Below, piece by piece: positions 7,067 through 64,000 of a stretch of DNA of 64,000 bases; within the stretch, counting starts at the first letter, position 1, and every line of letters begins with the position of its first letter. The stretch spans positions 1 through 64,000 of the IMG/VR virus record IMGVR_UViG_3300031993_000004. The stretch is one strand, 5' to 3'. The notes beneath the pieces are model-generated. The model searched no databases, was not told where the DNA came from, and worked only from the letters and a program-made list of their open reading frames with translations. This stretch comes from a virus. Its lineage: Duplodnaviria; Caudoviricetes. The position numbers and the translations under genes are program-made.

Positions 7067-7846
7067 TCAATAGCGAGACATGTGCGTCGCAGCCGGATCC
7101 AGCTTGAGCAGATAATCCATCTCTGCAAGGCAGAATTCGACGATTGCACGTTCCATTCCCTCTTCCTGGGTAATGGGCTTGCCCGCATAATATGCTTCTG
7201 ATACGAAGTGTGCAGTTGCACGCAGAATGAAGGATTCATTCGTAGCTTCATCAGAGACCTCTTCAGGCTTGCTGGTCTTACGCTCTGCAAGCTTCTCGTC
7301 CAGATCACTGAATACCGGAGAATCGTTGGATTGCGAAATGACTTTCGCAACATCATTGACGACCTTCTTGGAAACAACTTCCTTGATTCTTTCCCGAAGC
7401 TCATCATAGTTCTCGATATTCTTCAGCTCTTCCTTCAGAGTTTCTGCATCAGCAGTGGTTGAATCATCCTGACGGTCAACCACTTTGGATTGTACCGTCA
7501 TAGTCTTCTCGTCGATTTCCTGGATGATATCGGAGAGGACAGGTGAATTCAGTTTACCATTTGCTTTGCAAAGGTAATCATAGCATGTGCAGTTGTAATC
7601 ATTGCGGACATGATCCATGATCGATTGATCGATCATGCCGTCAAGATCTTTGGTTTCGTCATGCATCATCGCACAAATGATGTCTTTGAGAACATACAGC
7701 GAAAGTTTTTCGCGGAATTTCCCGGCATCAAATGTTGAAGGCATTGCAGTTCCCGGATTCTGATGAATCGTTGAATTCACATTATTCGGGAATTTATTGT
7801 TGGCTCCATCGATAATGGAATCCAACATTGATTTGATATCAGGCAT
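7067..7846 (-). CDS. putative virion (head) structural protein
   Basis: translationally coupled to the large QE-motif protein; acidic linker followed by TNE|SF. Confidence 0.55.
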   Translation of the reverse strand: MPDIKSMLDSIIDGANNKFPNNVNSTIHQNPGTAMPSTFDAGKFREKLSLYVLKDIICAMMHDETKDLDGMIDQSIMDHVRNDYNCTCYDYLCKANGKLNSPVLSDIIQEIDEKTMTVQSKVVDRQDDSTTADAETLKEELKNIENYDELRERIKEVVSKKVVNDVAKVISQSNDSPVFSDLDEKLAERKTSKPEEVSDEATNESFILRATAHFVSEAYYAGKPITQEEGMERAIVEFCLAEMDYLLKLDPAATHMSRY

Positions 7847-10800
7847 TATGCTTTACTCCTTTCATCAGTTTGCGGGTTTTTGTCAAAGAAACCTTCTTGA
7901 ACAGATCCCTCTTCGTCAACATATCGTTGATACATTGATTTCACATACTCGTCAAAAGTTCCGTCGAAATGTTTATTACCGGTTGTATCATAAACATACA
8001 CTGAATTCTTATGATACAACAATGCGTCATCGTGCTGTATTATACCAAACACGATTTCACCGTCGGTATACATTTCATCATCATCAGACCTCGTGTATTG
8101 TGCCACCGTTTGAGCATCTGCGAAGTAGTATGATGTCTCATAACCGTCTTCATCTTTCAGATCAAATTCACCCGCTTTTGCAAGCGTTTGATATTCTTTT
8201 GATTTGAATACCGTGACGAATTCTGATGGAAGCTTTCGACCGAGCCATGCTTCAATGTAGTCGACATTATCCGATGCAGGTGTGGAAAGTTTTGCAGACA
8301 TCTCATCAAATGTCGTACCGAGTTGATGTCTGTCATTGGGCTTATTGCTGAACAGATATGCATTTGACGCGAAGTTGTAAAAGATATAACCATCATCAGA
8401 ACATTTAAACAGTGGAATGTTTGCAGACATGATGGTCATACCTTCCCCCATATCAACAGGGACACCGGACTTCAGTACCGATTTTGGTGTCACAACATGT
8501 GTTATGATAAATATCTTCCCATCAACAGAGAGGAACTTTCCACGCCATTTGTATCCATCGCGGTAACCCTTTGTGAGATATGCTCGCAAATCGGTAGGAA
8601 TAGATCCAGTCATTTTCTCAAGTTTCGAAACAGTTCGGCCGGCCATAGCATCTCCAATCTTGGAGAAGAAACCTTCTTGAACAGTCACGAATTGAGAACG
8701 GTTCTTTGATGTGTCATACCATTCTCCGAGATCATTCATGTCGAGTGTCAATATGTCAAATGAGTTGCTCTGATGTGGAGAAACCAGTCTGGCAGAGAAC
8801 TCGCCGCCGTCAATAGACACTTCGACTTTCAGTTGCACATAACCTGCCGGACGTTTTGTGTCCTTCAGATTCTTGATATGACTGCAGTCTGAATCAAACG
8901 TAATATACGCTTTTGTATCAGACACGATCTCACCAGATGCAGGCGGATACAAAAATTCCAGATAATATTCGTAATGCTCGAAGTTGTCTTGCAATTCAGC
9001 TTCGTCAGCATTGTCCGTCTTTTCTCCTGTCATGTACTCATAGAGTTTGTTGAGAGCATTCTGACGAAGGCCATTGTCCAAGCAATACGGATATACGATC
9101 TTTCTCAAAATCGAATCCTTTGCACCTGAACCAACGGCAGGACTGAATAATGCCTGAATTATCAGTACCTGATCGCGGGACATCTTATCCGGGCATTTGA
9201 TAGGAATATCATATCCTCTGGAATCCGATACAGGACCAACGCCAAACACGGTTTGTTCCTGAACCGGTTTTCCCATCTTCTGTTCAACAACCATAAGAAC
9301 GCCAGACGCTTCAGAGACGAACGCTTGGATCATTCTCTTGACTGTCATAATACTGCCTGGATCAATATCTGCCCGAAGCATTTTACTCAGATCGGACAGA
9401 CAGTGATTCAGTTTCAAGAGTTGTTTGCGTTCAGTCTCATTGAAAACATTCTTCATGGTTGATGCATGATGGACGACACGATTGAGTTTCCATCCTTCTT
9501 TTCTGAATTCAGAACAGATCTTCTCAATGTCCATATCGGAGCTATTTAATATGCCGAGCGCTTTTCTGAGGTGAATATCCAGCTCCTTGTTAATATTACC
9601 TCGCGTCAGAAAAAAAGCTTCTTGCTCCACACTCGGTGCCGCGCCATCTGCAGGCGGGACGTCAGAATCGATCGGTGGTTGGACATTTGTATCAGCATTC
9701 TGCAGGAATTCCTTCAGCTGATCCATTGGCATGCCCTTGATCTTCTCCTGTGCTTGCGCCAGAATCTCGTCCATTGACATATTGTCAAAGTCAAGATCCG
9801 ACGTTGCAGGAGGCTCATCCATAGGTGCCTCTTCGGAACCGGCATCACCGATTTCTGCATCCAGGTCAGCTTCAGTCGGTGCGGCTTCGTCGCCACCGAG
9901 ATCTGCGTCAACGCCATCGATGTTCACGTCATTTTCAGCGTTTGCATCATTCTGGGTTTCATCAGCAACCTTCTCTGCAATCTGGTCGGAAACGTTGTTT
10001 GTATCAACGATTTCCTTGTTTTCGGTTCCATCAGCAGGTGCTTCTGCAGTAGGATCACCTTCGATTGGAGGTGCTGCAGCATCAGGAGCGGCTCCATCGA
10101 CAGGTGGAGTAGCATTTGGATCGGCAGGTGCACCATCAGGAGGAGGTGCATCGAATGACACAGCCGGTGCATCAGGATTTGCAGCCGGAGCTTCGTCAGG
10201 ATTGCCGAAATCAATTGCTTCCTGAACGAATCTGCTCGGGCGACGGTATGGAGTCTTCTCCCGTGCTGCTTTCGCTCTGAGTGCATCACCTTTCTGCATG
10301 CAATCGAGACCGCGAACCGCAGAGATATCCATTTCGGAAACAACTGCGTCACCGCCTCTGCTGAGCTTAGACCATCCGACATATACAACATCGGAAGTTC
10401 CATCGATTTCACACTCGATTGTGACACAGAGATGGTCACCAGGATCGGTCGGAACGATCATCTTGGTCGGAGTAATGAAACTCCAGATGTCTTCTGCAGA
10501 AGTTGCGCCGACTTGTTTGCCGAACTTTTCGAAGACAGCTTCTTGAATGGTCTGTTGACCCTCTTCCTTGAAAGCAGTGACACTGTCAAGCTGCTTCTTC
10601 AGAATCTGATCGTTCTTATCGGTTTGGAATTCGATTCCGAGTTTTGCGGAAAGGCTGTTTCCGTTCAACTGACCGCATTCCATAATGAATCTGGAAGGGA
10701 CACGATCGTCTGTCATGTCAATATGGTCGAAGCCATAGAAACCTTCCTGAATGCAGTATTTTTTGTATGCTGCAAACTTCTCCTGAGCTATGCCACGGCA

Positions 10801-11196
10801 CCGCTCTGAGAATGCATCATCCGGTTCACGCATGAACTGTGTTGTCGTTGCAACGGCTTCCTGATAGAAGTCATCGACAGTCTTCATGGTGGTGTAATCA
10901 TCCATTTCCTGGACAGTAGCATCGCCGGGAACATTGGTGAGACGACCAGACATGAGATCGACTTCAACAGATGTGATCTCAACGTCATCCTCAAGCGGAA
11001 TGTCGATCTTCGTGAACGGGCGGTCACTGCCTGCTTCTGTGCCCGCCATGCTCAGGTCATCGAGCTCTTGGAACAGATGTGCACATTCCAACACAGCGTC
11101 GGTCATTTGTGCTTCTTCTTGAACAGCTTCGAATGCTTGTGCTGCTTTGGCTTCATTCGCACGAGATTCAAGCTGCTGTCTGATATATCCAAGCAT
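7846..11196 (-). CDS. large putative internal head polyprotein with two C-terminal SUKH (SMI1/KNR4)-like domains
   Basis: about ten hydrophobic-Q-E motifs; long D/E/P/A linker; LEKMTGSIPTDLRAYL...TTFDEM and IEAWLGRKLPSEFVTVF...GTFDEYV; AAAGGAG RBS before ATG 11196. Confidence 0.7.
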   Translation of the reverse strand: MLGYIRQQLESRANEAKAAQAFEAVQEEAQMTDAVLECAHLFQELDDLSMAGTEAGSDRPFTKIDIPLEDDVEITSVEVDLMSGRLTNVPGDATVQEMDDYTTMKTVDDFYQEAVATTTQFMREPDDAFSERCRGIAQEKFAAYKKYCIQEGFYGFDHIDMTDDRVPSRFIMECGQLNGNSLSAKLGIEFQTDKNDQILKKQLDSVTAFKEEGQQTIQEAVFEKFGKQVGATSAEDIWSFITPTKMIVPTDPGDHLCVTIECEIDGTSDVVYVGWSKLSRGGDAVVSEMDISAVRGLDCMQKGDALRAKAAREKTPYRRPSRFVQEAIDFGNPDEAPAANPDAPAVSFDAPPPDGAPADPNATPPVDGAAPDAAAPPIEGDPTAEAPADGTENKEIVDTNNVSDQIAEKVADETQNDANAENDVNIDGVDADLGGDEAAPTEADLDAEIGDAGSEEAPMDEPPATSDLDFDNMSMDEILAQAQEKIKGMPMDQLKEFLQNADTNVQPPIDSDVPPADGAAPSVEQEAFFLTRGNINKELDIHLRKALGILNSSDMDIEKICSEFRKEGWKLNRVVHHASTMKNVFNETERKQLLKLNHCLSDLSKMLRADIDPGSIMTVKRMIQAFVSEASGVLMVVEQKMGKPVQEQTVFGVGPVSDSRGYDIPIKCPDKMSRDQVLIIQALFSPAVGSGAKDSILRKIVYPYCLDNGLRQNALNKLYEYMTGEKTDNADEAELQDNFEHYEYYLEFLYPPASGEIVSDTKAYITFDSDCSHIKNLKDTKRPAGYVQLKVEVSIDGGEFSARLVSPHQSNSFDILTLDMNDLGEWYDTSKNRSQFVTVQEGFFSKIGDAMAGRTVSKLEKMTGSIPTDLRAYLTKGYRDGYKWRGKFLSVDGKIFIITHVVTPKSVLKSGVPVDMGEGMTIMSANIPLFKCSDDGYIFYNFASNAYLFSNKPNDRHQLGTTFDEMSAKLSTPASDNVDYIEAWLGRKLPSEFVTVFKSKEYQTLAKAGEFDLKDEDGYETSYYFADAQTVAQYTRSDDDEMYTDGEIVFGIIQHDDALLYHKNSVYVYDTTGNKHFDGTFDEYVKSMYQRYVDEEGSVQEGFFDKNPQTDERSKA
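7886..8684. repeat. 19-nt direct repeats AAGAAACCTTCTTGAACAG at 7886-7904 and 8666-8684
   Basis: identical sequence 780 nt apart, both encoding VQEGF on the minus strand. Confidence 0.9.
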
Positions 11197-11279
11197 AATG
11201 AAAATTCTCCTTTGCAAAAATTTTTTATAAATAGACACACATATCGTTTTTTGGCATACCGATGTGATGTCTCTATTTA

Positions 11280-11426
11280 TTATAATAGAACACCCATTGT
11301 TTCCTTAAAAATCTCTGAAACCATTTCGGGTGTTAACTCTGAAATACCGAGCTCTTCCAATTCGAGATCTCCCTCAATAGTGGTCCCGTTAATGGACGGC
11401 TTGTTCTCGAGTTCATTATAATCCAT
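11280..11426 (-). CDS. 48-aa microprotein MDYNELENKPSINGTTIEGD...
   Basis: GGAGGTG RBS; DYNxLxNKPSING motif of the kind seen in phage structural/fibre proteins. Confidence 0.65.
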   Translation of the reverse strand: MDYNELENKPSINGTTIEGDLELEELGISELTPEMVSEIFKETMGVLL

Positions 11427-11453
11427 AAGGCACCTCCAGAAAGGAATGATGAT

Positions 11454-13382: not shown

Positions 13383-13400
13383 TGAAAGGAGTATAATCGA

Positions 13401-13964
13401 ATGCTTGATGAAATTTACGTATGGATGGAATCATACGCGGGCGTATCATTTGAATTTGAGGAAACGATTGCGGCGGTCTCTGGGACTACCGCGATCGTCG
13501 ACCCATATGGATGGTATTCGGCATTAACAGTCACATTGTGTCAACTTGACGATGCATGTGATATCATCGACATGTACCAATCCGCAATTCCTGATAATCT
13601 TCCCACTCGTAAGAAGATGAAACGTGCTATCACGGAGAATGTGCTCGGATTGATGGTCGAAAATATCCGCAGTGTCTGTTCTCAATTGAACATCGAACCG
13701 GTTGAGATTAAGACAACTGATATCTTGAAAGAGATCATCGAAACTATGTATGAGCTTCTGAACATGTTGAACACATACTCGATCGATGAAATCATCAAGA
13801 ATAATCTTTATGTGACCCATGAAGAGGAAAACGATGATTCGTTTGCAAATATGCTGAATATCATGAAGGAAGATATGGTACAGCTTGCGACGAATACAAA
13901 AGCAATCCGTGATCAATATTATGAGGCGCAGGATACTGCTGAAGAGCTGGGTGAAATTGACTAA
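13401..13964 (+). CDS. hypothetical acidic protein in replication operon
   Basis: GAAAGGAG RBS. Confidence 0.75.
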   Translation: MLDEIYVWMESYAGVSFEFEETIAAVSGTTAIVDPYGWYSALTVTLCQLDDACDIIDMYQSAIPDNLPTRKKMKRAITENVLGLMVENIRSVCSQLNIEPVEIKTTDILKEIIETMYELLNMLNTYSIDEIIKNNLYVTHEEENDDSFANMLNIMKEDMVQLATNTKAIRDQYYEAQDTAEELGEID

Positions 13965-13996
13965 ATTTGGACAATAATATTGTTCTAAATGGTGTC

Positions 13997-14008
13997 AACA
14001 TTAACATA
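13997..14008 (+). promoter_or_regulatory. putative nvRNAP promoter AACA-N6-TA
   Basis: AACATTAACATA upstream of RBS. Confidence 0.5.
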
Positions 14009-14035
14009 CATTATTTTGAAAGGAGAGTGGCTTCA

Positions 14036-14617
14036 ATGCCGTTCCAAAATTCAGGTTTCAATAACCAAAACTCATCCTCTGGTGAGAAGAAGAAGACCAA
14101 TTGGCCGGTTGGCAGACTGTTCTGTTCTGATGCTGTGATGAATCTTAGCATCTGGAATTCTGATTCCGCAGTCTACACCATATTCGCAATCAAGGAGGCG
14201 CGTGGTAAGGACCCGTCTACCGGTGCGAATATCTATGAGCAGAAAATGCCAAACGAACTCCCGCGCGTATTCATGAACCCTGAAGCGCTCCGTGGTTTTA
14301 TCGAAGGCGCTAAGGCACTCGACATCACAACAAACACAACGGTGCAGGTTCCGCAGAAGAATGGTTCCAAGATCACGATCACTACCAATGACTCTCAAGT
14401 CAAGATCACGCTTGAGACTCAGAAGCAGGGCTCTCGTACGGCAACCTTTGAGCCGGTCCCGTTCGGCGCAACAAAGGTCAACGCACAGTGGAAGAACATG
14501 CTGACGCTGCTTGATATTGCCATGAAGAAGGCGCTCTTTGCAAAGCTTGATCCGGAAGAGTTTGCGATGGCAATGGGTGGCAACAACGGCGACGGTGACG
14601 AAGAGGTCCCGATCTGA
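14036..14617 (+). CDS. putative single-stranded DNA-binding protein
   Basis: beta-rich body, acidic tail GDGDEEVPI (cf. SSB DDDIPF), near DNA polymerase. Confidence 0.55.
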   Translation: MPFQNSGFNNQNSSSGEKKKTNWPVGRLFCSDAVMNLSIWNSDSAVYTIFAIKEARGKDPSTGANIYEQKMPNELPRVFMNPEALRGFIEGAKALDITTNTTVQVPQKNGSKITITTNDSQVKITLETQKQGSRTATFEPVPFGATKVNAQWKNMLTLLDIAMKKALFAKLDPEEFAMAMGGNNGDGDEEVPI

Positions 14618-15231
14618 TGATTGATTTCTCCAACATTGGACAAGAAGCTTTCGTGATTCAGTACGAAGATCTCATATCGCTGATCGGATTAAACGTCGTC
14701 CGCTATATCAGATCGAAACAAGGTCTGCCTTCAACGGATGAATTGACCCTCGAATATTGTAATCGTACAGATTATGACATCGAGAAGTTTGTTCGAGAGC
14801 ATGATGTGATCGGCTGTGAGTTTCCTATAACGGAGATGTACAAATCTCCGATTGCGTGTCGCCCGAACTTGGCGTATGCGTTTAAGATAATGGAAGCGGC
14901 TGCGCGAAATGGAATTCGTCGGTTTGTGATTCATTCAAATGAATATTCACCTGCCATCGAGAAAATTGTCAATGCATTGGAGATCAAAGTAACGTATAAG
15001 CACGGGGATATCGTCCCCGTGCTGAATGCGTTACCCAACTGCACATATACAACATCTGATCCGAATAATATTCGGAAGTGTAAGGATGTTGATGCTCCAT
15101 TCGCATTGACGATTGTCGACGACTTCCAATATGTTGCACCATTCGTGTTGGATCAATCGTTCGTTGAAGAGCTCAGAAAGAGAGGAAAGTATGTCCAGTT
15201 CACCGGCGTGATATCCGCCGGAATTATCTGA
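14617..15231 (+). CDS. hypothetical protein, possibly degenerate HAD-like fold
   Basis: coupled ORF; alpha/beta pattern, LTIVDD. Confidence 0.5.
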   Translation: MIDFSNIGQEAFVIQYEDLISLIGLNVVRYIRSKQGLPSTDELTLEYCNRTDYDIEKFVREHDVIGCEFPITEMYKSPIACRPNLAYAFKIMEAAARNGIRRFVIHSNEYSPAIEKIVNALEIKVTYKHGDIVPVLNALPNCTYTTSDPNNIRKCKDVDAPFALTIVDDFQYVAPFVLDQSFVEELRKRGKYVQFTGVISAGII

Positions 15232-15265
15232 TATCACTTCATTCAGTCAGGAGGTTGAAGACACT

Positions 15266-16900
15266 ATGACCGAGCCGCCCAACAAAACCCTGTTGTACCT
15301 GTATGATCCTGATGAAACGTATGAGTACAATGCTGCCCACGGAACGGAATATCCGTATAATGGTTTCCCAACGGGTCAATATGGACGAAAGTACAAGAAG
15401 ACCCGATTCATAAATTGGGAACCTATTCCGGAAGACATTATTATCAGACATAATGGTTCGCAAATCTTTGTGAACTTCTCGGCATTATTCCCGAACAACG
15501 TAATCGATCCTGCCATCCAGCTGTTCCAAATGAGAACACGTCGTCTGGATTTACAGAATCTGATTTGTGAACAGATCAATTTCTTCACGGCATTATATGA
15601 CCCTGATAATGATCTGATTACAAGTATGCTTGTTGCGAAGTACCTGACAGATTCGCAAACATATACAATCGTGACATTTGAAGAATATCAGCAAAAGCTG
15701 TTCGACATTCTGTTCCCTGAATGGACCATTGCTAGAATTCGAAAGATGGTTGAAGAAAACGACGTTGGCGACGATGTCAAAGGTTTGTTCCCCGAAGATA
15801 TGCCGCGAGATATCTTTATCGTGTCCTTCATGATCAAAGTCATGCATATTTTCATCGAGCACTTCATCATTTCAACAGGTAATTCTCCGAAAGACCTGTA
15901 CGAGTTATTCGCAATGGCATTCACAAATATCATGAATCATATCAATCCGAACATCTATGTTCTGTTGTATGATTACGTGAATTCATCCGTTGTACAATCA
16001 TGCTCATCAAATGCGAACATTTATGACATGCAAGCAATTGATGGTGTGACGATTCCGACAACCACACTCTATGTGATGAGAAAGAGTTTGTTGTGTGACG
16101 GTTTAATCAAATTGACATTTGCTTCGGCATGGGACAAAGTCCAAAAGAGACCCACATTCTCTTGTGTCGGTTTGATCAAAGCAATCATTACGCAGGCATC
16201 GTTCGTCACAAGAAAGGTCCAGCTCAGATACTCGCTGGTCAATGTTGATGATATCTCCCAGCTGCTCCCGGACCAGATCTCGAACAATTCACCGATTTCA
16301 ATGATTCGGTCGTTCAACCCTGGAGAGTATTCGTGCGTATACATTGATCTGAAGGTTATCATCGGACAAGTCGCAAAAGAAATCGATCTGTCTCCTGTTG
16401 ACTTCTATCTTGAGAATCTTCCGCAGATGAATGACCTTTCCAAAGTGCTTGTCGAAGCCGTTTTGTACAATAAATTCCATTCCAGCATTTCGATCAATAT
16501 TCTGTCAATGAAGCAAAAGTATATTCTGCTTCTGTATGTTCGCCATCTGATCATGCAGATCTATTCTTTGACGGAGGAAGACACGAAATCGAACCCGCTG
16601 ATCAGTATGTTGATGGCAAAGACTGTCACGCATACGACGAAGACGTTGACCGCAAAGGATTTGAATTCTATCAAGAAATTCGTGAAGCTGAATAATCTCC
16701 GCGAATTCTTGTTGAGTGAAAAGAATGTGACGACGTTTATCGAGTCTATCGTCCATTCCGTTCTTTCATCATATACGATCGTGAATCACAATGATCCATC
16801 TCTGTTGAACACTCCGCTCCAGTATGATGCAAATAACATGACACTGGATTTGCTTGACATGTGTGTTTCATTGTTTGATTATATCACGAATCCTCAATAA
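15266..16900 (+). CDS. hypothetical 544-aa helical protein; candidate nvRNAP promoter-specificity (sigma-like) subunit
   Basis: AGGAGG RBS; size and position just before beta-prime; function is inference only. Confidence 0.4.
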   Translation: MTEPPNKTLLYLYDPDETYEYNAAHGTEYPYNGFPTGQYGRKYKKTRFINWEPIPEDIIIRHNGSQIFVNFSALFPNNVIDPAIQLFQMRTRRLDLQNLICEQINFFTALYDPDNDLITSMLVAKYLTDSQTYTIVTFEEYQQKLFDILFPEWTIARIRKMVEENDVGDDVKGLFPEDMPRDIFIVSFMIKVMHIFIEHFIISTGNSPKDLYELFAMAFTNIMNHINPNIYVLLYDYVNSSVVQSCSSNANIYDMQAIDGVTIPTTTLYVMRKSLLCDGLIKLTFASAWDKVQKRPTFSCVGLIKAIITQASFVTRKVQLRYSLVNVDDISQLLPDQISNNSPISMIRSFNPGEYSCVYIDLKVIIGQVAKEIDLSPVDFYLENLPQMNDLSKVLVEAVLYNKFHSSISINILSMKQKYILLLYVRHLIMQIYSLTEEDTKSNPLISMLMAKTVTHTTKTLTAKDLNSIKKFVKLNNLREFLLSEKNVTTFIESIVHSVLSSYTIVNHNDPSLLNTPLQYDANNMTLDLLDMCVSLFDYITNPQ

Positions 16901-16920: not shown

Positions 16921-18303
16921 ATGAATGCTCAGCGACTCAATCTTGAAATCGAATATCTGAAAGATATTGCGACTCATAATGGATTCTTGATCCAAGAAGA
17001 AGACCATTATTCTCCGACGAATGTGAACGCGCTCGTAGATTCTACAAAATTCACAGACTGTGAATACAGATGTGACTGCGGCGCGTTCATTGGACAAGAT
17101 CTGATCGGTCAAATCTGTCCAAGATGTAAATCAGAGATTACATTGCATTCTCTGAACTTTGCATATACTGGATGGATTGATCTCGGCGAACACAAAGTGA
17201 TTACTCCGGTATACTATATTATGTTGAAGCGTGTTCTCGGAACGAATATGCTTCGATACATCCTGGGTGATTACAAATCCAAACTTGACATCAAGTACAA
17301 CGAAAATGATCATGGCGAACCTGAGGAAAAGAAACAGAAGAAGGCAGGCCGTGTCTCTCAGGATGACATCCGTTATATCGAAAAGAAAATCCCGAAAACA
17401 AAATTGATGTATCGGGGAATCGGTCATGACGGATTCTATCAACGTTTTGAAGAAATCATGAACGCATGTGCTCCGAAAAACAATGAAGAACTGAAGATCC
17501 TGCTGGACAATAAGGAAGCTGTATTTACTTCGAAGATTCCGCTGTATTCCACGGCTTTCCGACCCGTCTCCAAAACCTCTGAAACAAAATTCTATCCCAA
17601 GATCAACAAATGGTTTGCACAAATGGTTTCTGTCGCATGCAGAATGAAGAACATGGTGCTCAACATGGAATACATGCAGGCACTCAACTACATTCAGAAA
17701 TGCTGGATGGAAGCTGTCGAGCACATCATTAAGAATGAAATGTCTAAGAAGGACGGCTACGTTCGTACAGAAATCATCGGCGGCTCATTCGCATTTTCTG
17801 CACGTGCGGTTATTACACTTGACATTTCTCTGAATGTTGATGAAGTGGACCTTCCGTACTCGATGGTGCTGACGGCATATCAGTATCGGCTGACATATAT
17901 GCTGGCGACGCGTTATAATATGACACTTGAGCAAGCATACCTTTTCATCAACACATATGAAAAGAATGAAATCATCATCGGCTTACTGGATGAGATCATT
18001 GCAGAAGGACAATGGGTTCTGTACTTACGTGAACCGACGAACAATCTTGCATCAATTGTTCTTGCAAAGATTCGTCGTTACAAAGTCGGAGATGATACAA
18101 TGTCTGTTCCGCTCGAACCGTTGAGCGGACTGAACGCGGACTTCGATGGTGATGCATTGGATATCTGGTTCCTTCTGGATAAACAGCTCGTACAGAAGTT
18201 CGATGCATTCCATTATTCATGCCTGACTGACCGCATCAATGAGAAGGTGTCTCTCGATATTCTTTCATGGGCAGATGTTGCTCTTGGAAGAATGACTGAA
18301 TGA
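16921..18303 (+). CDS. RNA polymerase beta-prime subunit, N-terminal half (non-virion RNAP)
   Basis: Zn finger CDCG...CPRC, GWIDL, FSARAVI, LREPT, catalytic LNADFDGD. Confidence 0.92.
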   Translation: MNAQRLNLEIEYLKDIATHNGFLIQEEDHYSPTNVNALVDSTKFTDCEYRCDCGAFIGQDLIGQICPRCKSEITLHSLNFAYTGWIDLGEHKVITPVYYIMLKRVLGTNMLRYILGDYKSKLDIKYNENDHGEPEEKKQKKAGRVSQDDIRYIEKKIPKTKLMYRGIGHDGFYQRFEEIMNACAPKNNEELKILLDNKEAVFTSKIPLYSTAFRPVSKTSETKFYPKINKWFAQMVSVACRMKNMVLNMEYMQALNYIQKCWMEAVEHIIKNEMSKKDGYVRTEIIGGSFAFSARAVITLDISLNVDEVDLPYSMVLTAYQYRLTYMLATRYNMTLEQAYLFINTYEKNEIIIGLLDEIIAEGQWVLYLREPTNNLASIVLAKIRRYKVGDDTMSVPLEPLSGLNADFDGDALDIWFLLDKQLVQKFDAFHYSCLTDRINEKVSLDILSWADVALGRMTE

Positions 18304-55971: not shown

Positions 55972-57909
55972 TCAAAACGGTTGAAACAGAAAGTACGGAA
56001 CCATATCCCGTGTATAAATCGGAATATTCAGTTCTTTTGCTTTCATTACTTTTTCGGACATGTAATCATTATCAGGAACAATAAGACCTTGAATAGTCTT
56101 TGCGAACCCACCGATTTCCCAGCCGTTTTCTTCAAGCTGTGATTCGAGTTGTTTATCACGGAATCCTGTGAAGCACAACCTTCCCTTTTTCGTGATAAAC
56201 TTCGGAAGCGGCGGTTTCAGTTTATCCGGTACCCATTCCATGAGATATTGGATTTCGTCCTTGTTTCGCAGATAACCTGACACAATACGTTGGATTTTAC
56301 CCTCACCAACATTCGGAATATATCCATGCATCATGATAAAATAATCGAGTGTCCCATCTTTCAGAACTTTGATGATGTTATCATATCCACAGGCATCGAT
56401 GATTTGTTTCCAGGTCTTCTCATCCGTGTCATTAAATGGCAATGCTCCAAGGAAACGTTCCAGAGTTGCTTCAGACAATGCTTTGTCAACGCTAGCAACC
56501 ATATTGTCATATGATGTATATCCGAATCCAGGTGTTTGTGCAATGCAGTCATCCCATTTCCGTAGATCATACAAATCTGAGATGCATGTCACAAATTCGT
56601 TGTCATACAGCTTCGTGATGACTCCTTCGCCGAGACCAACCATTCGCATCTTTTCAGCATGACGGATGATAGAACCCAGCTTCAGACCTTTACAATTTGG
56701 ATTCTGACAACGAACGATCGTCGAACTCAAATAATCCAACGGTGCACCGCAAATCGGACATTTATCGGGTAACGGGATAGGATAATCACCATCATGATAT
56801 GAGTCAATGAAATATGGCACGATGTTGTACATAATCCGCACAGTATCATTATGTCGGAGATTCATTTCTTGCACACGCTTCAGTGTAGACAATGTCACAT
56901 GATCTACTGACACATTTCCGAATTTCACGGGTGGATTCAGAATCGCCACAGGTGTGATACGTCCTTGTTTACCAAACTGAAATTGAATGGTTTCAAGTTT
57001 TGCTTCTTGAATATCTTTCAGAATCTTGATTGCAATTTCCAGATTCGGATTTACATATAACGGCATTGTGACATTCCGATCACCAATAACACCATCCGCG
57101 AGAACCGATACAACAACACCATCAACAGAATATGTTCCATCCAATCCGAAATTGTCCATATAATGCGTCGCCCCATGTGTCAGCAACTCATCAATGGTTG
57201 TCTGTATGGAACCATATTGAAGTGCTCCGGTCCAACCAGAACGGATCCGTCCAACATAACTTGGAAGAGCATTCGGAAGATACTGTTTTCCGTTCATATA
57301 TCCGCGTAATGGAATCAGCGAAATCAGTTTTGAAATATTCGGATCACGCAGTTTGAAGTTTGCCGTAACAGCATCTCTTGGACGTGTATAACGTTGATTC
57401 AATCCGGACATAATGAATTTCTCGTGTGACATGATCGCTTCGAATTTGATTGAATCGGATTTGTCATAATATCCCCATAAGACTTCATTCAAAACCCAAT
57501 CCACTCTGTCTTCAAAGATTTCGGTTACGTCCATCGAAGTGCCGTCATCAACGTCACCACGCGTAAAAAATCTTTTTGTCTTGACATCAAATGCCACAGA
57601 ACAACCATCGAACTTCGGTTGAACTGCAACCGTGTGATTATCTGTCAGATGATTCTTTTCCGTCCATGCTTTATATGTCAACAAACCATCGCGCCACGGT
57701 TCAATGACACCGTATGCTTTTGGTAACGTACCCACGATATCATTTACAGATGAAGATTGTTTTTGTCTCATGAACGGACGATTCTTTTCTCCATGCTCTT
57801 TCAAATATTCTTCGAGAAGCATGTCATACTCTTCATCTGATATCAAAGGTTGGCCGTTTTGATATGCTCGAATATATTCATCAAGCTGTTCTTTTGTGAT
57901 TGCCATCAT
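55972..57909 (-). CDS. ligA: NAD-dependent DNA ligase
   Basis: ISDEEYD, QPKFDGCS, FTRGD, DGVVV, GRITPVA, CPICG...CQNPNC, HhH and BRCT-like end. Confidence 0.93.
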   Translation of the reverse strand: MMAITKEQLDEYIRAYQNGQPLISDEEYDMLLEEYLKEHGEKNRPFMRQKQSSSVNDIVGTLPKAYGVIEPWRDGLLTYKAWTEKNHLTDNHTVAVQPKFDGCSVAFDVKTKRFFTRGDVDDGTSMDVTEIFEDRVDWVLNEVLWGYYDKSDSIKFEAIMSHEKFIMSGLNQRYTRPRDAVTANFKLRDPNISKLISLIPLRGYMNGKQYLPNALPSYVGRIRSGWTGALQYGSIQTTIDELLTHGATHYMDNFGLDGTYSVDGVVVSVLADGVIGDRNVTMPLYVNPNLEIAIKILKDIQEAKLETIQFQFGKQGRITPVAILNPPVKFGNVSVDHVTLSTLKRVQEMNLRHNDTVRIMYNIVPYFIDSYHDGDYPIPLPDKCPICGAPLDYLSSTIVRCQNPNCKGLKLGSIIRHAEKMRMVGLGEGVITKLYDNEFVTCISDLYDLRKWDDCIAQTPGFGYTSYDNMVASVDKALSEATLERFLGALPFNDTDEKTWKQIIDACGYDNIIKVLKDGTLDYFIMMHGYIPNVGEGKIQRIVSGYLRNKDEIQYLMEWVPDKLKPPLPKFITKKGRLCFTGFRDKQLESQLEENGWEIGGFAKTIQGLIVPDNDYMSEKVMKAKELNIPIYTRDMVPYFLFQPF

Positions 57910-59072: not shown

Positions 59073-62000
59073 TTATACGCTGAATCTAGAAGGTCTCTGT
59101 TGCGGGGTCGATTCAGGCGTGCTGTAGAACTTGTTATACGTCTCGTTCTTAGTCTTTGCAGTCTGATCGTTCTCGATACGAGCGGCATCAGACTCCTCAG
59201 TCTTCTTCAGCAGTTCCTGATTCATACCCATGATCTGGTTGATATCATATTGCATTGCGGAAATCCACGCTTTGCAGGTCTTCACAACCGTAGTCAGAAT
59301 CTTAACACCCTTGTCATAGCGCTTCTGATCCGTGTAGTAGATAGAATCAGATTGTTGCGTCATTGCATCCATGCCAATCAGAACACTGTTGACATATTGC
59401 ATGAAGCGAGACCATCTGTCGCATCTGATACGGATTTCGTTCAGAGTGTTATTGCTCTTTCCAGCTTGGTTTGTCGTGTCTGAATAACCGAACAACGCCT
59501 GTGATACACGTTGTTCAGTATCAGAGTCTTGCGGCACAACGAATGCAGACTTGACGAGATGAGCACCTGCCAGAAGTTCTGCACCACGCTCCATATTTCC
59601 GCGAATATCCAGCTTCGGATCTCTCGGAAGAGACGTGACATCTGCAGGAATATTGTCGTTGTTCAGTTTGATGTGCAGGTATTGTGCACAAGCCTCGACG
59701 GTATCATACGCAAGTGCGAGTAACGTATCGAGATGTTCATCAACATAGGAAGACTCCGGGAAGTTCAGATTGATGAAATAGAAGAAATACTTCTGCTCGA
59801 AGATTCCCTGCATGCCGTACTGCTGAATGAAACGCTTGATTGACCGAGAATGATTTCTGATTCTGTTACAGAATTCGACAAACTTTCGAATGAGTGTCAT
59901 TAGTGTTTTGATGACAAATCCGATTGCGGAACGGAGCAGCTGAATGGGTCCACGTCTGTTTGCTTTTGACAACGGATGCTTCTCTGATTTCGCCGCCGTA
60001 GAATCATACACGGCTTCCTGCATCAAACAGCTCTCGACAAATACATCAACGGCTTTGTCAACGTCTTCTGGTGATGAGTTGCCGGATTCCAGAATGATTT
60101 CTGTACTCTGATACATTGCGTCAAACATCATAAGTGCAGATTCCAGCGTCTGGACGTCTTCCTTGAGAGAAGCAATCTCTTCACCATCATCACTGATGGA
60201 AATGGAACCGCGGATATGGCACTTATCGATTGCAGTTTGCATAGCGGTCTCTTCGTCCATACCCATTTCAAGGAGTTCCTGATATTCGGATTTGACATCC
60301 GGATCCTTCGGTTCGTACTTTTCACCGGTGAGTTCGCACTTTGCATACAGAAGTTGCTCCATATGGAAACGTTCTTCATTTGCAATGTCTGCATACAGCC
60401 GGCGGAGAACATCGACGTTGGTTTCCTTAGCTCCGTCCATGTATTCGTTCATTGCATCGGCTTCGGAAGCCATCAGCTTCATCAGAATGGTGACTTCTTT
60501 CTGATCGTAATCGTTCTGCATGTCGGATGTATCCTTGCCGAATTGACCGAGGTCAACATTGTCGGCATCGAGATTCTCATCCGGTTGTTCGACAGCAGCT
60601 TTATCTGCAGCGGACATCCGATCCTTCAGATAACCTGGAATCTCTTCCAACTCAGGCGGGGTCTTTTCAGTGTCCCATCTGCTCGGCATCGAAGTTGATG
60701 GAGTTTCATTATCATCCCCGGCATCGTCATCTTTTGGCTCGTTGTCCTCAGACTCATCATCCCACTCAACATCGTCGAGCGGTGTCTCTTCGACGGAGAT
60801 GGATTCTTCTGTTTCGTCACCGTTCTCTTCGTCATCGAGGTCCAGATCACCGATTGTGATATCTTCCATATCTTCGGTTTCGGACAGGTTCTCTGCTTTC
60901 TTGGACTCGGTAATCATCAGATCTTCTGTCTGATCCATTCGATATCCCTCCTTGGTTAACATTGTTTTCTTGGCCTCACCATCATAGACCATTTTGCATT
61001 TGGTCATAATCCATTTGCAGAAGTCATCTGCTGGTGTACCATAATCGATTTTGGCATCCGTGTAATCCCACACTCCGTAATTGAGATCCTGGTTGTCATA
61101 CTCTGCAGAAACTTCTGCGACGTATTTGAAGATCTCTTCCAGAGAATCAAAAGTCTTTTGACGCTCGTAACCCCATTCATCAACAACACGTTTGAATGCT
61201 TGTTCGAGATAAATGAATTTACCATTTAATGGAACGACACATATTGTATGGGTGTTTATAATGGTTTTTCCGTCAGTTTTGGTAAAGTTCATGAAGTATT
61301 TTTTGTATGGTACCCCGAATGCTTCGAGATATCCAGCTTCATATTCAACCATATCCCAACAGTTACCGCCACCGGCTTCATCAACTTCTTGACTTGAATG
61401 GAATACCCAATGCTTCTGATAATCCGCTTCGGATACATTACCTGTTTGCAACCTGCCATCTTTGATCAAACCGTACTTGAACTTCTTCATGTCGATGCAG
61501 AGATCAGAGATAACACGTTCTGGTGAATAATCAAACTTTGTACCCTTCTCAAGTACTTTCGGTTTGACAACCCAATGCCATTTATATGTGAAATAATTAC
61601 GGTCATCTTTTTGACCTTTAGCCGTTGGAACGACAGCTTTTCGTTTCACATTGGATACTTGGTCAACTTTAATTACACCGTACAGTTTCAGCCGCACGGG
61701 TTCCATGATCCATACTTCGCGTGTAACATTTGCATCATAGACGAGTTTCTCGTTAACGAGTTCTTTTGTCGTTTTATGCTTGTATTCCTTCCATGGTTTT
61801 TCAGGAATATAAACATACATCTTGTCGAATTGGTCTGGATTCTGTCTCGGAAGATTCACAGTGATGCCATTCAACGCACCTTCGATAGACGTCGAGAAAC
61901 AAACGCGTGGAGTTGTGTTATCTTCAAATCCGGTTTCTTCGGGATTATATGGATCCAAATAGTCTGGAACACGCGGTTTCCATACTTGACCATCGTTATG

Positions 62001-63998
62001 CTTCTCATGCGACACATGAAATACCATCTTATCAGAGAATGGATTCACACCGTTCTTGATATCCTGGATAGCTCCCTCTTGAACCGGTTTTGATTTATCA
62101 AATCGCATGACCAATCCACCATGATCATTTTCCATGTCAACAATGAAACCGAGAGACTTATACAGTTTCTGTGCACGTTTGTTAGACTTCATTACCTGGA
62201 GCAGGATTTTGTCATGAGTCTTGATGTCCTTCTTGATGATATCCGAACCAATTCCAAGATTCCGATATTCCGGTTTGATGTAAATATGTGCGAGATACCA
62301 CCAATCACGTTTTCCTTCACGAAGTCCATAGTAGTTGGTTTCATATGCCTGATAAACACCGACGTCTTTCCCATCAACTACAATGATTTTGGTGTGACCG
62401 ATACTATCCTTAACATCCTGCTTAATATACCGCTGAACTTTTGGATCGTCTTTGTTTTCACCGACAGTCTCCAATTCAGACTGATATACCAAATCCAAAT
62501 CGGATTCTTTTGCTTTTCTCATCACATATTTTGAGGGTGTGGCATATTCATCCATGAAGGATTCTTTCACAACTTTCGGCATGGGGTTTGCATTGATTGT
62601 AACAATATCGGATTTAAGATAAGTTTTTGAAAAGTTCTTTTCGTAGAATATTCGTTCCATTGTTTCGAGATACATATCCCACAACATCTGATATGATATA
62701 GCTGGTATACCATTGGACTTTATCTCGTCCTCAGGTATGATATAGCCAATATAAACATACAATGGACGTCCGACTTTGTCCTCCATATACTGTTTGGCAT
62801 TGGGATGTCTTCCATCCGGATCATATGTCTCAGGTTGATAACCAACCTTATTTGCAAGATCAGCCAGGAATATGTATAACAGCGCTGTATAGAATCCATT
62901 TGCATATGTCACATTAACATGCATTTCTCTATCATAATACTTATCAAAGCATCTGATATTCTTGCCGATCAGTGTCTTATATGCCATTTCGCTATTGATA
63001 ATAGCTGTTGGTATCAATGCACCTCGAGAATGGAAATCGTTATAAAACGTTCGTCCATAGAAATACGGATACACTTGGATAGTATTTGAGCCAGACTGGT
63101 TATTTGCAGTGAGGGCGTTTTCCAAAGCGTGAATAATGTTTTTGTCACCGTTTTGGGAGTCTTCGATATCCTTCATCAAAGACATATATTCCGTGAGTAG
63201 GTTCTTTAGTGCGGTGACCGTCTTTTCTGGCAAATTTTCTCTACCAAGGATTGAATTAATTTCATTCGTTTTTGTTTTGATATCATTCAAAACTTGCTTT
63301 GGATTTTCGATGATCTGTTCATTATTACTTCTGATGTCATCGAGTTCATATTGGAGTTCACGTACATTGATTTCATCCGCATCATCGGAATTAATTTGAT
63401 CAATAACGCGACCAGCAATATTATTCAACCCATCAACATCAGTTTTCGTTTTCGCCGGGGAATCCCAACCGAAGAACGCTTTGATTTTATCAATTAGCCA
63501 TCTGACAGCACCACGGCACCATTCGATTATTCTTGCGATCAAGCTTCTCCGTTGAATCACTTCGGCTTCAAAAACCAACATTGATGACAACGCTTGACCA
63601 TAGTCGATGTAGGATTCACACCATTCTTTTACAGCCGTTGGATTATACTTGTCAACAAGTTCGTTTGCGAAGTCAGCAACGACATGAGACGCTTGCATCA
63701 GTGCAATACCTTTGCGTTTGTGTAGTATATCCGGGATTCCCTTGTAAACCGGAGTAACTTCGACGTTGGGTCCGACGATGTTTACTTCAATCGCAACGTC
63801 CGGCTTCATCCGAGATTTAATAGTAAACTTCGGAATCAGCGAACCGCCAATGAATTCAAAGTCATTCCCCAACAGATTCATCAGTTGGTTTTTGACATTT
63901 AACAGTGACGCCGTACATGCCGCTTCTTGAACAGGAAGATCTCCCATATTCATCGCCAATTGATAATCTTCATCACTCAGCAGGCCGTGCTCTTTCAT
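59073..63998 (-). CDS. very large putative virion polyprotein (possibly 5'-truncated by the window): internal-head-like helices, GNAT, ART-like, papain/transglutaminase-like and half-ferritin domains
   Basis: YIKPEYRNLGIG...NKRAQKLYKSLGF; FHVS...PRVCFSTSIEGAL...REVW; GGNCWD...HTI...E; EADAMNEY...EERFH; x-Q-E/x-K-E junctions. Confidence 0.8.
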   Translation of the reverse strand: MKEHGLLSDEDYQLAMNMGDLPVQEAACTASLLNVKNQLMNLLGNDFEFIGGSLIPKFTIKSRMKPDVAIEVNIVGPNVEVTPVYKGIPDILHKRKGIALMQASHVVADFANELVDKYNPTAVKEWCESYIDYGQALSSMLVFEAEVIQRRSLIARIIEWCRGAVRWLIDKIKAFFGWDSPAKTKTDVDGLNNIAGRVIDQINSDDADEINVRELQYELDDIRSNNEQIIENPKQVLNDIKTKTNEINSILGRENLPEKTVTALKNLLTEYMSLMKDIEDSQNGDKNIIHALENALTANNQSGSNTIQVYPYFYGRTFYNDFHSRGALIPTAIINSEMAYKTLIGKNIRCFDKYYDREMHVNVTYANGFYTALLYIFLADLANKVGYQPETYDPDGRHPNAKQYMEDKVGRPLYVYIGYIIPEDEIKSNGIPAISYQMLWDMYLETMERIFYEKNFSKTYLKSDIVTINANPMPKVVKESFMDEYATPSKYVMRKAKESDLDLVYQSELETVGENKDDPKVQRYIKQDVKDSIGHTKIIVVDGKDVGVYQAYETNYYGLREGKRDWWYLAHIYIKPEYRNLGIGSDIIKKDIKTHDKILLQVMKSNKRAQKLYKSLGFIVDMENDHGGLVMRFDKSKPVQEGAIQDIKNGVNPFSDKMVFHVSHEKHNDGQVWKPRVPDYLDPYNPEETGFEDNTTPRVCFSTSIEGALNGITVNLPRQNPDQFDKMYVYIPEKPWKEYKHKTTKELVNEKLVYDANVTREVWIMEPVRLKLYGVIKVDQVSNVKRKAVVPTAKGQKDDRNYFTYKWHWVVKPKVLEKGTKFDYSPERVISDLCIDMKKFKYGLIKDGRLQTGNVSEADYQKHWVFHSSQEVDEAGGGNCWDMVEYEAGYLEAFGVPYKKYFMNFTKTDGKTIINTHTICVVPLNGKFIYLEQAFKRVVDEWGYERQKTFDSLEEIFKYVAEVSAEYDNQDLNYGVWDYTDAKIDYGTPADDFCKWIMTKCKMVYDGEAKKTMLTKEGYRMDQTEDLMITESKKAENLSETEDMEDITIGDLDLDDEENGDETEESISVEETPLDDVEWDDESEDNEPKDDDAGDDNETPSTSMPSRWDTEKTPPELEEIPGYLKDRMSAADKAAVEQPDENLDADNVDLGQFGKDTSDMQNDYDQKEVTILMKLMASEADAMNEYMDGAKETNVDVLRRLYADIANEERFHMEQLLYAKCELTGEKYEPKDPDVKSEYQELLEMGMDEETAMQTAIDKCHIRGSISISDDGEEIASLKEDVQTLESALMMFDAMYQSTEIILESGNSSPEDVDKAVDVFVESCLMQEAVYDSTAAKSEKHPLSKANRRGPIQLLRSAIGFVIKTLMTLIRKFVEFCNRIRNHSRSIKRFIQQYGMQGIFEQKYFFYFINLNFPESSYVDEHLDTLLALAYDTVEACAQYLHIKLNNDNIPADVTSLPRDPKLDIRGNMERGAELLAGAHLVKSAFVVPQDSDTEQRVSQALFGYSDTTNQAGKSNNTLNEIRIRCDRWSRFMQYVNSVLIGMDAMTQQSDSIYYTDQKRYDKGVKILTTVVKTCKAWISAMQYDINQIMGMNQELLKKTEESDAARIENDQTAKTKNETYNKFYSTPESTPQQRPSRFSV

Positions 63999-64000
63999 AT

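Follow-up and report, generated by a model that had tools for sequence, protein, structure and literature searches.

RNA-virus polyproteins are made as one product with 3C-like protease sites, at which Gln or Glu precedes the cut (P1) and Gly, Ser, or Ala follows it (P1'). In phage T4, Alt and the internal proteins are packaged in the head, cut by the gp21 protease at L/I-x-E, and injected. Polyvalent proteins, giant polypeptides of phages and conjugative elements that combine unrelated enzymatic domains and are delivered with the phage DNA, have already been published (Iyer, Burroughs, Anand, de Souza, Aravind 2017, PMC5512222), and GNAT and ADP-ribosyltransferase (ART) domains have been described as neighbors within them (PMC5512222, PMC7824862). 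Extensive processing of head and ejection proteins by S80 family proteases has likewise been described for phiKZ-like phages (PMC10052503, PMC11297242). Here we analyze a gene of an uncultivated jumbo phage of ~277 kb (Duplodnaviria; Caudoviricetes), found at the end of the window, that is, the 64,000-nucleotide stretch formed by bases 1 to 64000 of the 277,583-bp IMG/VR virus record IMGVR_UViG_3300031993_000004. The gene probably encodes a polyvalent head protein of a phiKZ-like jumbo phage, which would be cut after Glu by an S80 protease in the prohead so that its modules are delivered.

In the full record the gene spans 59073..64904 (-) and encodes 1943 amino acids (aa). The original prediction, made from the window, described a 1641-aa open reading frame (ORF) at 59073..63998 as a string of unrelated modules. 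That ORF, its modules, and its motifs are real and lie where they were placed, but the gene is longer: the window edge truncates the ORF, and the ATG at its start is an edge artifact. The frame is open up to 64958 of the full record, and the best start is the ATG at 64904, with GAAAGGAG upstream, which a gene call scored by codon usage picked independently. Residue numbers below are those of the original prediction plus 302. The in-window features are as follows (the arrow marks a predicted cut, n the number at a homology breakpoint, and pLDDT the predicted local distance difference test score).

59073..64000 (-): the part of the gene inside the window; the first 302 residues lie past the window end
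63924..63935 (-): PVQE↓A junction, residues 324-327, 12 aa downstream of the breakpoint at 315 (n = 120)
62562..63923 (-): variable insert, residues 328-781, absent from the relative L003
62562..62573 (-): VVKE↓S variant junction, residues 778-781, with a breakpoint at 786 (n = 72)
62076..62561 (-): GNAT acetyltransferase module, residues 782-943, from Pfam
62076..62087 (-): PVQE↓G junction, residues 940-943, at the protein's strongest breakpoint (941, n = 134)
61527..62075 (-): ART-like domain, residues 944-1126, from predicted structure (pLDDT 92)
60972..61526 (-): transglutaminase-like/papain-like cysteine protease domain, residues 1127-1311, from predicted structure
60948..60956 (-): TKE↓G, residues 1317-1319, a conserved [VIT]-K-E↓G just past the folded domain
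60504..60947 (-): acidic low-complexity linker, residues 1320-1467, from sequence (pLDDT <50 at the model start)
60327..60503 (-): two-helix half-ferritin, residues 1468-1526, from predicted structure and conserved ligands
60015..60026 (-): LMQE↓A, residues 1627-1630, at a helix end directly before a low-confidence loop
59076..60014 (-): helical C-terminal domain, residues 1631-1943, from predicted structure

Two hallmarks of polyvalent proteins are present: GNAT, ART-like, two Cys-His, and ferritin-like domains lie within one 1943-aa phage ORF, and the architecture is mosaic and shuffles rapidly among relatives. The protein shares with the polyvalent class its unrelated enzymatic domains in a giant phage polypeptide, a GNAT beside an ART, peptidases, a predicted co-delivery with DNA, and mosaicism. 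Unlike polyvalent proteins, its modules are delimited by a short motif that the capsid protein and the head protease also carry, its ART belongs to a different family from the H-Y-D "polyvalent" ART, and a half-ferritin plus gp86-like unit forms its conserved C terminus. Neither a zincin MPTase nor a MuF-type head domain, as found in polyvalent proteins, was detected in it. This combination of a cut-site rule delimiting freely shuffled effector modules, a specificity other than A/S/G-x-E, and an EncFtn-like plus gp86-like C terminus appears to be new.

We infer the cleavage, the capsid location, the ejection, and the host targets as follows. The precursor would be a late polypeptide that strings together DUF6582, a Gln-deamidase-like domain, the insert, GNAT, an ART fold, the transglutaminase-like protease, the acidic linker, the half-ferritin, and the gp86-like domain, most of them parted by [V/I/F/M/L]-Q-E↓[A/G/S] and once by V-K-E↓S. 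It would be built into the prohead, where the S80 protease would cut after Glu at the junctions and yield roughly seven pieces. The freed enzyme modules would remain in the head, enter the host with the DNA, and there modify host proteins or disarm defenses.

The original prediction had proposed a hydrophobic-X-E motif, which proved too permissive; comparison with relatives suggested the sharper motif [VILMFYT]-Q-E↓[AGS] (h-Q-E↓[AGS]), and this narrower form does exceed chance. In a call of 236 genes it occurs 39 times across the genome, against 13.0±3.7 in within-protein shuffles; none of 500 shuffles reached 39, and reversed and Asp control motifs gave 12 to 18. Three places, which make up 25% of the proteome, account for 30 of the 39 sites: 17 are in the structural block at 188-237 kb (p = 3e-4), 7 in the gene's own cluster at 59-73 kb, and 6 in a 1116-aa protein at 7846..11196. 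The structural block was set by annotation, and the other two places were chosen after the data had been seen. The motif is thus enriched in the virion gene block, as had been anticipated, and is at chance elsewhere, the other 75% of the proteome carrying 0.142 sites per 1000 aa against a shuffle expectation of 0.153. Besides the capsid protein and the protease, some 15 further structural-block proteins contain it. At 15 of 31 sites P3 is Val, and hydrophobic residues are frequent at P4.

The major capsid protein (218667..220928, minus strand; phrog_20655, E 2e-9) carries FMVQE↓S at residue 118, a propeptide-like position. Four kilobases from its gene lies a gene for a 295-aa protein (224922..225809, minus strand) that matches PF20034 Peptidase_S80, the phiKZ gp175 family (E 3.4e-5; 23.6 bits, with the cut-off at 23.4), and the PHROG family phrog_3014, "head maturation protease" (E 5e-8). 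This protease contains YVQE↓A near its N terminus and VHQE↓S right behind its catalytic domain, and the position of the latter parallels the C-terminal self-cleavage of SPN3US gp245 (PMC10052503), an enzyme that favors Val at P4 and Ser at P1' (PMC10052503). The simplest reading of these sequences is that the S80 protease of this clade recognizes h-Q-E followed by a small residue and that the 1943-aa protein is one of its substrates.

Such a substrate would resemble those of the S80 proteases (gp175/gp245) of phiKZ, 201phi2-1, and SPN3US in several respects. These are likewise jumbo phages with multisubunit RNA polymerase genes and an S80 family protease; the predicted cut follows Glu and precedes a small residue, with P4 frequently hydrophobic; head proteins have propeptide-like N termini; the protease has a C-terminal site; and the protein studied here has a helical domain that resembles gp86. 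The phiKZ-type sites are A/S/G-x-E (PMC10052503), whereas the junctions here have V, I, or F at P3 and Gln at P2, and the known SPN3US substrates shed N-terminal propeptides (PMC10052503), whereas these sites would release whole enzyme domains. The parallel to T4 Alt and the internal proteins (described in part in PMC5512222) is that the head would take up an ADP-ribosyltransferase-type enzyme, which would be trimmed at a site with Glu at P1 and a hydrophobic residue at P3 and then injected. Alt, however, consists of one enzyme and a short targeting peptide, whereas about seven modules share one precursor here, and T4 uses gp21, an S77 protease, at L/I-x-E, whereas no gp21-type S77 protease (PF03420) was found in this genome.

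Homologues of the protein were collected as 175 matches of near its length and, among 50% representatives, 667 matches to its C-terminal half, on contigs of up to 295 kb. Dozens of architectures occur among 245 related proteins, and, as the original prediction had suggested checking, related phages have differing module strings held together by the same joining motif. We compared motif positions with homology breakpoints in 120 homologues, which hold 363 motif sites at a density of 1.89 per 1000 aa. Within 5 aa of a breakpoint cluster lie 62% of the sites, against 8.6% of random positions, so that the motif does fall at module boundaries. Among the P2 residues compared at breakpoints only Gln is high; Lys and Asn reach 29%, and most others 0 to 20%. 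Ahead of the ART-like module, 115 homologues can be aligned, and h-Q-E↓[GS] is kept in nearly all of the contexts listed, behind unrelated upstream sequence. Segments bounded by two sites are 171 aa long at the median, and clustering sorts them into 111 groups, which include GNATs, a 63-aa Cys-rich module, internal copies of DUF6582, and a stand-alone ART-like module; a Pfam census of the homologues adds SUKH immunity-type domains and DUF6985. Two other multisite proteins of the same genome share modules with the family.

Three sites in the protein fit the strict motif, ending at residues 327, 943, and 1630 (PVQE↓A, PVQE↓G, and LMQE↓A), and all had been pointed out in the original prediction. 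The first is not near the N terminus; in the full gene two domains precede it. Its breakpoint is where L003 departs, lacking residues 312-791, and xPVQE↓x is retained before at least four different downstream modules. The h-K-E sites VVKE↓S and TKE↓G, also proposed, are partially supported, h-K-E↓[AGS] lying at breakpoints in 29% of cases. VVKE↓S aligns in relatives with PVQE↓SFMDEY, LTE↓SFMDEY, and IKQE↓SFMD. At TKE↓G the pLDDT drops to 58, and this may be a variant site. Homologues retain h-x-E at the position of LMQE↓A. Two further proposals, VFE↓A and ITE↓S, found no family-wide support, since h-F-E (5.6%) and h-T-E (10.7%) are at background at breakpoints. Leu or Val follows Glu in each of the protein's four remaining QE dipeptides. 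Two of these, SSQE↓V and EYQE↓L, fall within modeled helices; IFQE↓L is found just beyond the Pfam Gln_amidase match, and MNQE↓L was not placed with confidence. The protein has no junction site between its ART-like and transglutaminase-like domains; relatives carry one there.

Upstream of the first junction, in the coding part beyond the window end, Pfam identifies DUF6582 at residues 12-67 (E 5e-7), for which a literature search turned up nothing, and PF15644 Gln_amidase ("papain fold toxin 1") at residues 147-244. The latter scores 30.2 bits with a 320-aa segment and 26.7 bits with the whole protein, above the cut-off of 24.1, and its residues C149, H225, and D240 are conserved in 126 to 128 homologues. 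The variable insert that follows contains a ~100-aa module (residues 328-427, present in 27 homologues), an amphipathic helix and coiled coil, and a ~170-aa domain. Residues 328-781 gave no Pfam or PHROG match, and an ESM Atlas search with residues 600-781 gave none either. We also compared the two "amphipathic-helix domains" of the original prediction (residues 447-791 and 1631-1943); they have no detectable homology, and the idea that they are relatives was dropped. The acetyltransferase that had been predicted next is borne out by two Pfam models above their gathering cut-offs, PF13508 (39.6 bits, cut-off 27, E 7e-10) and PF00583 (38.3 bits, cut-off 20.7, E 2e-9).

Residues 944-1320 were modeled with AlphaFold2 from a 50-sequence alignment (mean pLDDT 92.4). 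For the first half, every match confined to model residues 3-183 is an ADP-ribosyltransferase, at modest scores: VIA-align returned pertussis S1 (Z 5.8), Arr (5.4), TreX (5.4), PltA (5.1), and Scabin (5.0), and Foldseek returned cholera toxin A, LT, and pertussis toxin (probability up to 0.99, E ~4e-3). Near-invariant residues are H963, S965, R1000, S1004, S1006, Y1030, Y1032, and E1063. The model bears out, at these modest scores, the ART-like fold that had been proposed, with a candidate H-Y-E or R-S-E triad among H963, S1004/S1006, Y1030/Y1032, and E1063. The second half matches CPR-C4 (Z 12.8 over 164 aa, root mean square deviation [rmsd] 3.5), vasohibin (Z 10.6), and LapG (Z 9.0); its triad C1182, H1219, and E/D1234 is conserved in ~150 homologues, some of which match PF04473 or PF01841. 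Fold and Cys-His-acid triad agree with the papain/transglutaminase-like domain named in the original prediction. Across the modules, catalytic or ligand residues are conserved in 126 to 165 homologues, which argues that the released pieces would be working enzymes rather than disposable propeptides.

A model of residues 1434-1943 (pLDDT 76.5) begins with two long helices, which match EncB (Z 8.0, rmsd 2.0, 64/64 aligned, 22% identity) and rubrerythrin (Z 7.5, rmsd 1.2); Foldseek matched them to EncFtn 5n5e with probability 1.00. E1481, Y1488, E1510/E1511, H1514, and E1516 are invariant or nearly so in ~165 homologues. The predicted EncFtn-like two-helix fold and its conserved putative metal ligands (Glu...Glu-x-x-His) are consistent with the half-ferritin of the original prediction. 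By HMMER alone the matches are nonsignificant (EncFtn, E 0.12 to 0.2; bacterioferritin, E 0.13; Pfam Rubrerythrin, E 0.07), and HMMER searches of PDB sequences, with the whole protein and with a 45-sequence profile of the C-terminal unit, gave only GNAT matches and nonsignificant ferritin matches. Like EncFtn and EncB/EncC, this would be a two-helix half-ferritin with conserved Glu, Tyr, and Glu-x-x-His ligands inside an HK97-fold shell; encapsulin ferritin, in contrast, is a small cargo with a C-terminal targeting peptide, whereas this half-ferritin is embedded in a 1943-aa phage protein.

Half-ferritin and C-terminal domain together form a unit of ~500 aa, which 163 of the 245 related proteins assembled contain. 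Sixty of the 163 have nothing but this unit in common with the query; the shortest, at ~550 aa, contain little more, and the longer ones carry different modules at the N terminus. Model residues 217-489 (residues 1650-1922) match 8Y6V chain G, identified as phiKZ gp86, over 227/297 residues with Z 10.4, rank 2 of 48,161 chains. The likeness to this inner capsid protein is suggestive only; gp86 is a minor capsid protein on the inner surface and is processed by gp175 (PMC11297242). Among viral predicted structures, the named matches of the C-terminal domain are mostly virion structural or internal head proteins (E 5e-4 to 5e-2) of 201phi2-1, PhiPA3, SL2, Psa21, AR9, and Erwinia jumbo phages. A Foldseek search of the C-terminal model against the PDB gave nothing at E <= 0.001, and PHROG scans of the protein and of 45 homologues of the unit gave no virion-labeled family. 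The model also weakly resembles alpha-pore-forming toxins and TolC, likenesses that we disregarded as generic to long helices.

Several observations weigh against an S80-processed head protein. The phage is known from metagenomes alone, and the S80 Pfam match is barely at its cut-off. The junction motif is unlike the established S80 specificity, with A, S, or G at P3; the S/A/G-X-E rule of phiKZ that the original prediction had invoked does not hold at the junctions, where classical [ASG]-x-E-[AGS] sites lie at breakpoints in 5.5% of cases, the background level. The gp86 likeness is a helical-fold match whose Z score stays under 13, the cautious threshold, and aligning the C-terminal profile to phiKZ gp86 with hhalign revealed no relationship in sequence (probability 0.8%). 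The gene lies 125 kb away from the capsid and protease block and adjoins a DNA ligase gene, and LMQE↓A is not a shuffling breakpoint. In the relative L005, which has other modules and a homologue split into three ORFs, and in ~70 family members, the effector string stops before the C-terminal unit; because of this, the unit cannot be the sole packaging signal.

Three other explanations can be weighed on the same evidence, and each accounts less well for where the motif occurs in the genome than cutting in the prohead does. The junctions could be left uncut, the motif being a conserved linker or joint, in the form of a structural cap or a recombination seam, in a protein that works as a single polypeptide with many domains, as the N4 virion RNA polymerase does. 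Delivery without cutting is known for some polyvalent proteins (PMC5512222), and LMQE↓A sits inside the conserved unit. We consider this unlikely, since the four-residue motif is kept between unrelated flanks in nearly all of the contexts listed for the 115 aligned homologues, since it also occurs at propeptide-like N-terminal positions of single-domain head proteins and in the capsid protein, and since Glu at P1 with a small P1' fits known head protease chemistry (PMC10052503). Self-processing would assign the cuts to the protein's own papain-fold and/or transglutaminase-like domains, with no part played by the prohead protease, whether in the producing cell or once delivered. The two conserved Cys-His domains make this conceivable, autoproteolysis by peptidase domains has been proposed for other polyvalent proteins (PMC5512222), and the best structural matches (vasohibin, LapG, and CPR-C4) are true proteases. 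The motif is nevertheless also found in the capsid protein, the S80 protease, and many structural-block proteins in which no cysteine peptidase domain was detected, sites also occur in family members made up of nothing but the ferritin/C-terminal unit, and the motif is at chance in the nonvirion proteome, all of which makes self-processing quite improbable.

Least probable of the three is that the protein acts in the cytoplasm, as a host-takeover product of early or middle expression with the replication genes, and is cut by a cytoplasmic protease pool or by host enzymes. The proximity of the NAD-dependent DNA ligase gene and the distance from the capsid genes would fit such a role, as would the lack of a PHROG "virion" label on any part of the protein. 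It is at odds with a motif that is common to head proteins, with structural matches to phiKZ gp86 and to virion and internal head proteins of phiKZ-like phages, and with neighboring genes whose products have propeptide-like N termini. Cutting by the S80 protease in the prohead remains the reading we prefer.

A broader proposal, which we advance tentatively and rate at slightly less than an even chance, is that this protein belongs to a large clade of uncultivated jumbo phages that freely swap more than 100 kinds of domain-sized module among several head polyproteins as cargo cassettes. The modules would be enzymes, SUKH-type immunity domains, zinc ribbons, and half-ferritins, each bounded by h-Q-E↓[AGS]; they would be cut inside the capsid by an S80 protease altered in its P3/P2 preference, and an encapsulin-type ferritin would be packaged with them. 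Any module inserted between two sites would then automatically be packaged, released, and injected.

If the junctions are cut in the head, the family shows a double-stranded DNA (dsDNA) phage loading and releasing many independent effectors from one gene. As in RNA-virus polyproteins, functional units in one product would be parted by a short consensus; the differences are that this is a dsDNA phage, that the predicted protease is an assemblin-like serine protease in the capsid, and that the modules are accessory effectors and not replication proteins. On this reading, h-Q-E↓A/G/S would predict every protein that is processed in the head of these uncultivated phages, and more than 100 candidate injected modules would be delimited for screening for anti-defense or host-takeover activity. 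It would also mean that S80 proteases can change specificity, that the rule could be reused for loading foreign cargo into jumbo phage capsids, and that the conserved half-ferritin is a direct functional parallel between phage capsids and encapsulins.

Several minor observations concern the family. A mini-module of ~63 aa, rich in Cys (CxC...CxxC), lies between cut-site motifs in 31 homologues (for example, P0053, residues 589-651), and 4 of the 38 members sampled have SUKH/SMI1-KNR4 immunity-type domains. In L005, a related 249-kb phage, positions 9914-16326 (+) hold three overlapping ORFs of 1146, 405, and 617 aa; either the effector string and the ferritin/C-terminal unit are separate genes there, or the contig carries frameshifts.

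Other proteins of the genome also contain the motif. The 1116-aa protein (7846-11196, minus strand) has six h-Q-E↓[AG] sites (residues 113, 151, 219, 326, 841, and 1101), three of which precede GFF/GFY. It matches no PHROG family, its Pfam matches are below threshold, and its residues 628-874 are 37 to 42% identical to modules of the family studied here; it is probably a second cut-site-punctuated head polyprotein. Near the gene itself, adjacent proteins of 343 and 333 aa (67096..68127 and 68143..69144, minus strand) both have SEF.IFQE↓[GA] at residue 57, and their ~57-aa N termini look propeptide-like, by analogy with phiKZ-type internal head proteins. An 87-aa ORF (69220-69483, minus strand) contains GSMVQE↓SYNAS, nearly the capsid-protein context SFMVQE↓SYNVA, and a 381-aa protein (71621-72766) has VIQE↓A at residue 52.

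In the head block, a 1024-aa protein (232191-235265, minus strand) has VVTQE↓S at residue 255, and the module right after this site, which has a weak ClpP/crotonase-like PHROG match, is common to P0159, P0023, and P0028 (31 to 35% identity). A 742-aa protein (229945-232173, minus strand) has AMIQE↓S at residue 271, a position that recalls the 254-residue propeptide of the SPN3US portal. It was considered as a portal and set aside, as Pfam and PHROGs gave no portal match.

The genome has no close cultured relative by DNA search and tblastn. Its host probably belongs to the Bacteroidota, as one homologue carries the label Paludibacteraceae. Cultured phages gave no DNA match to the gene, and tblastn with the protein found a single weak match among them, in Klebsiella phage Centimanus, to the ART-like region only. 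Other genes in the window code for multisubunit RNA polymerase pieces, a DNA polymerase, a recombinase of the UvsX-like type, and an NAD-dependent ligase. The beta-type subunits of the RNA polymerase (phrog_3148 and phrog_2987) and the NAD-dependent DNA ligase are encoded at 1201-5403 (-), 16921-18303 (+), and 55972-57909 (-), which places the phage among the RNA polymerase-encoding jumbo phages.

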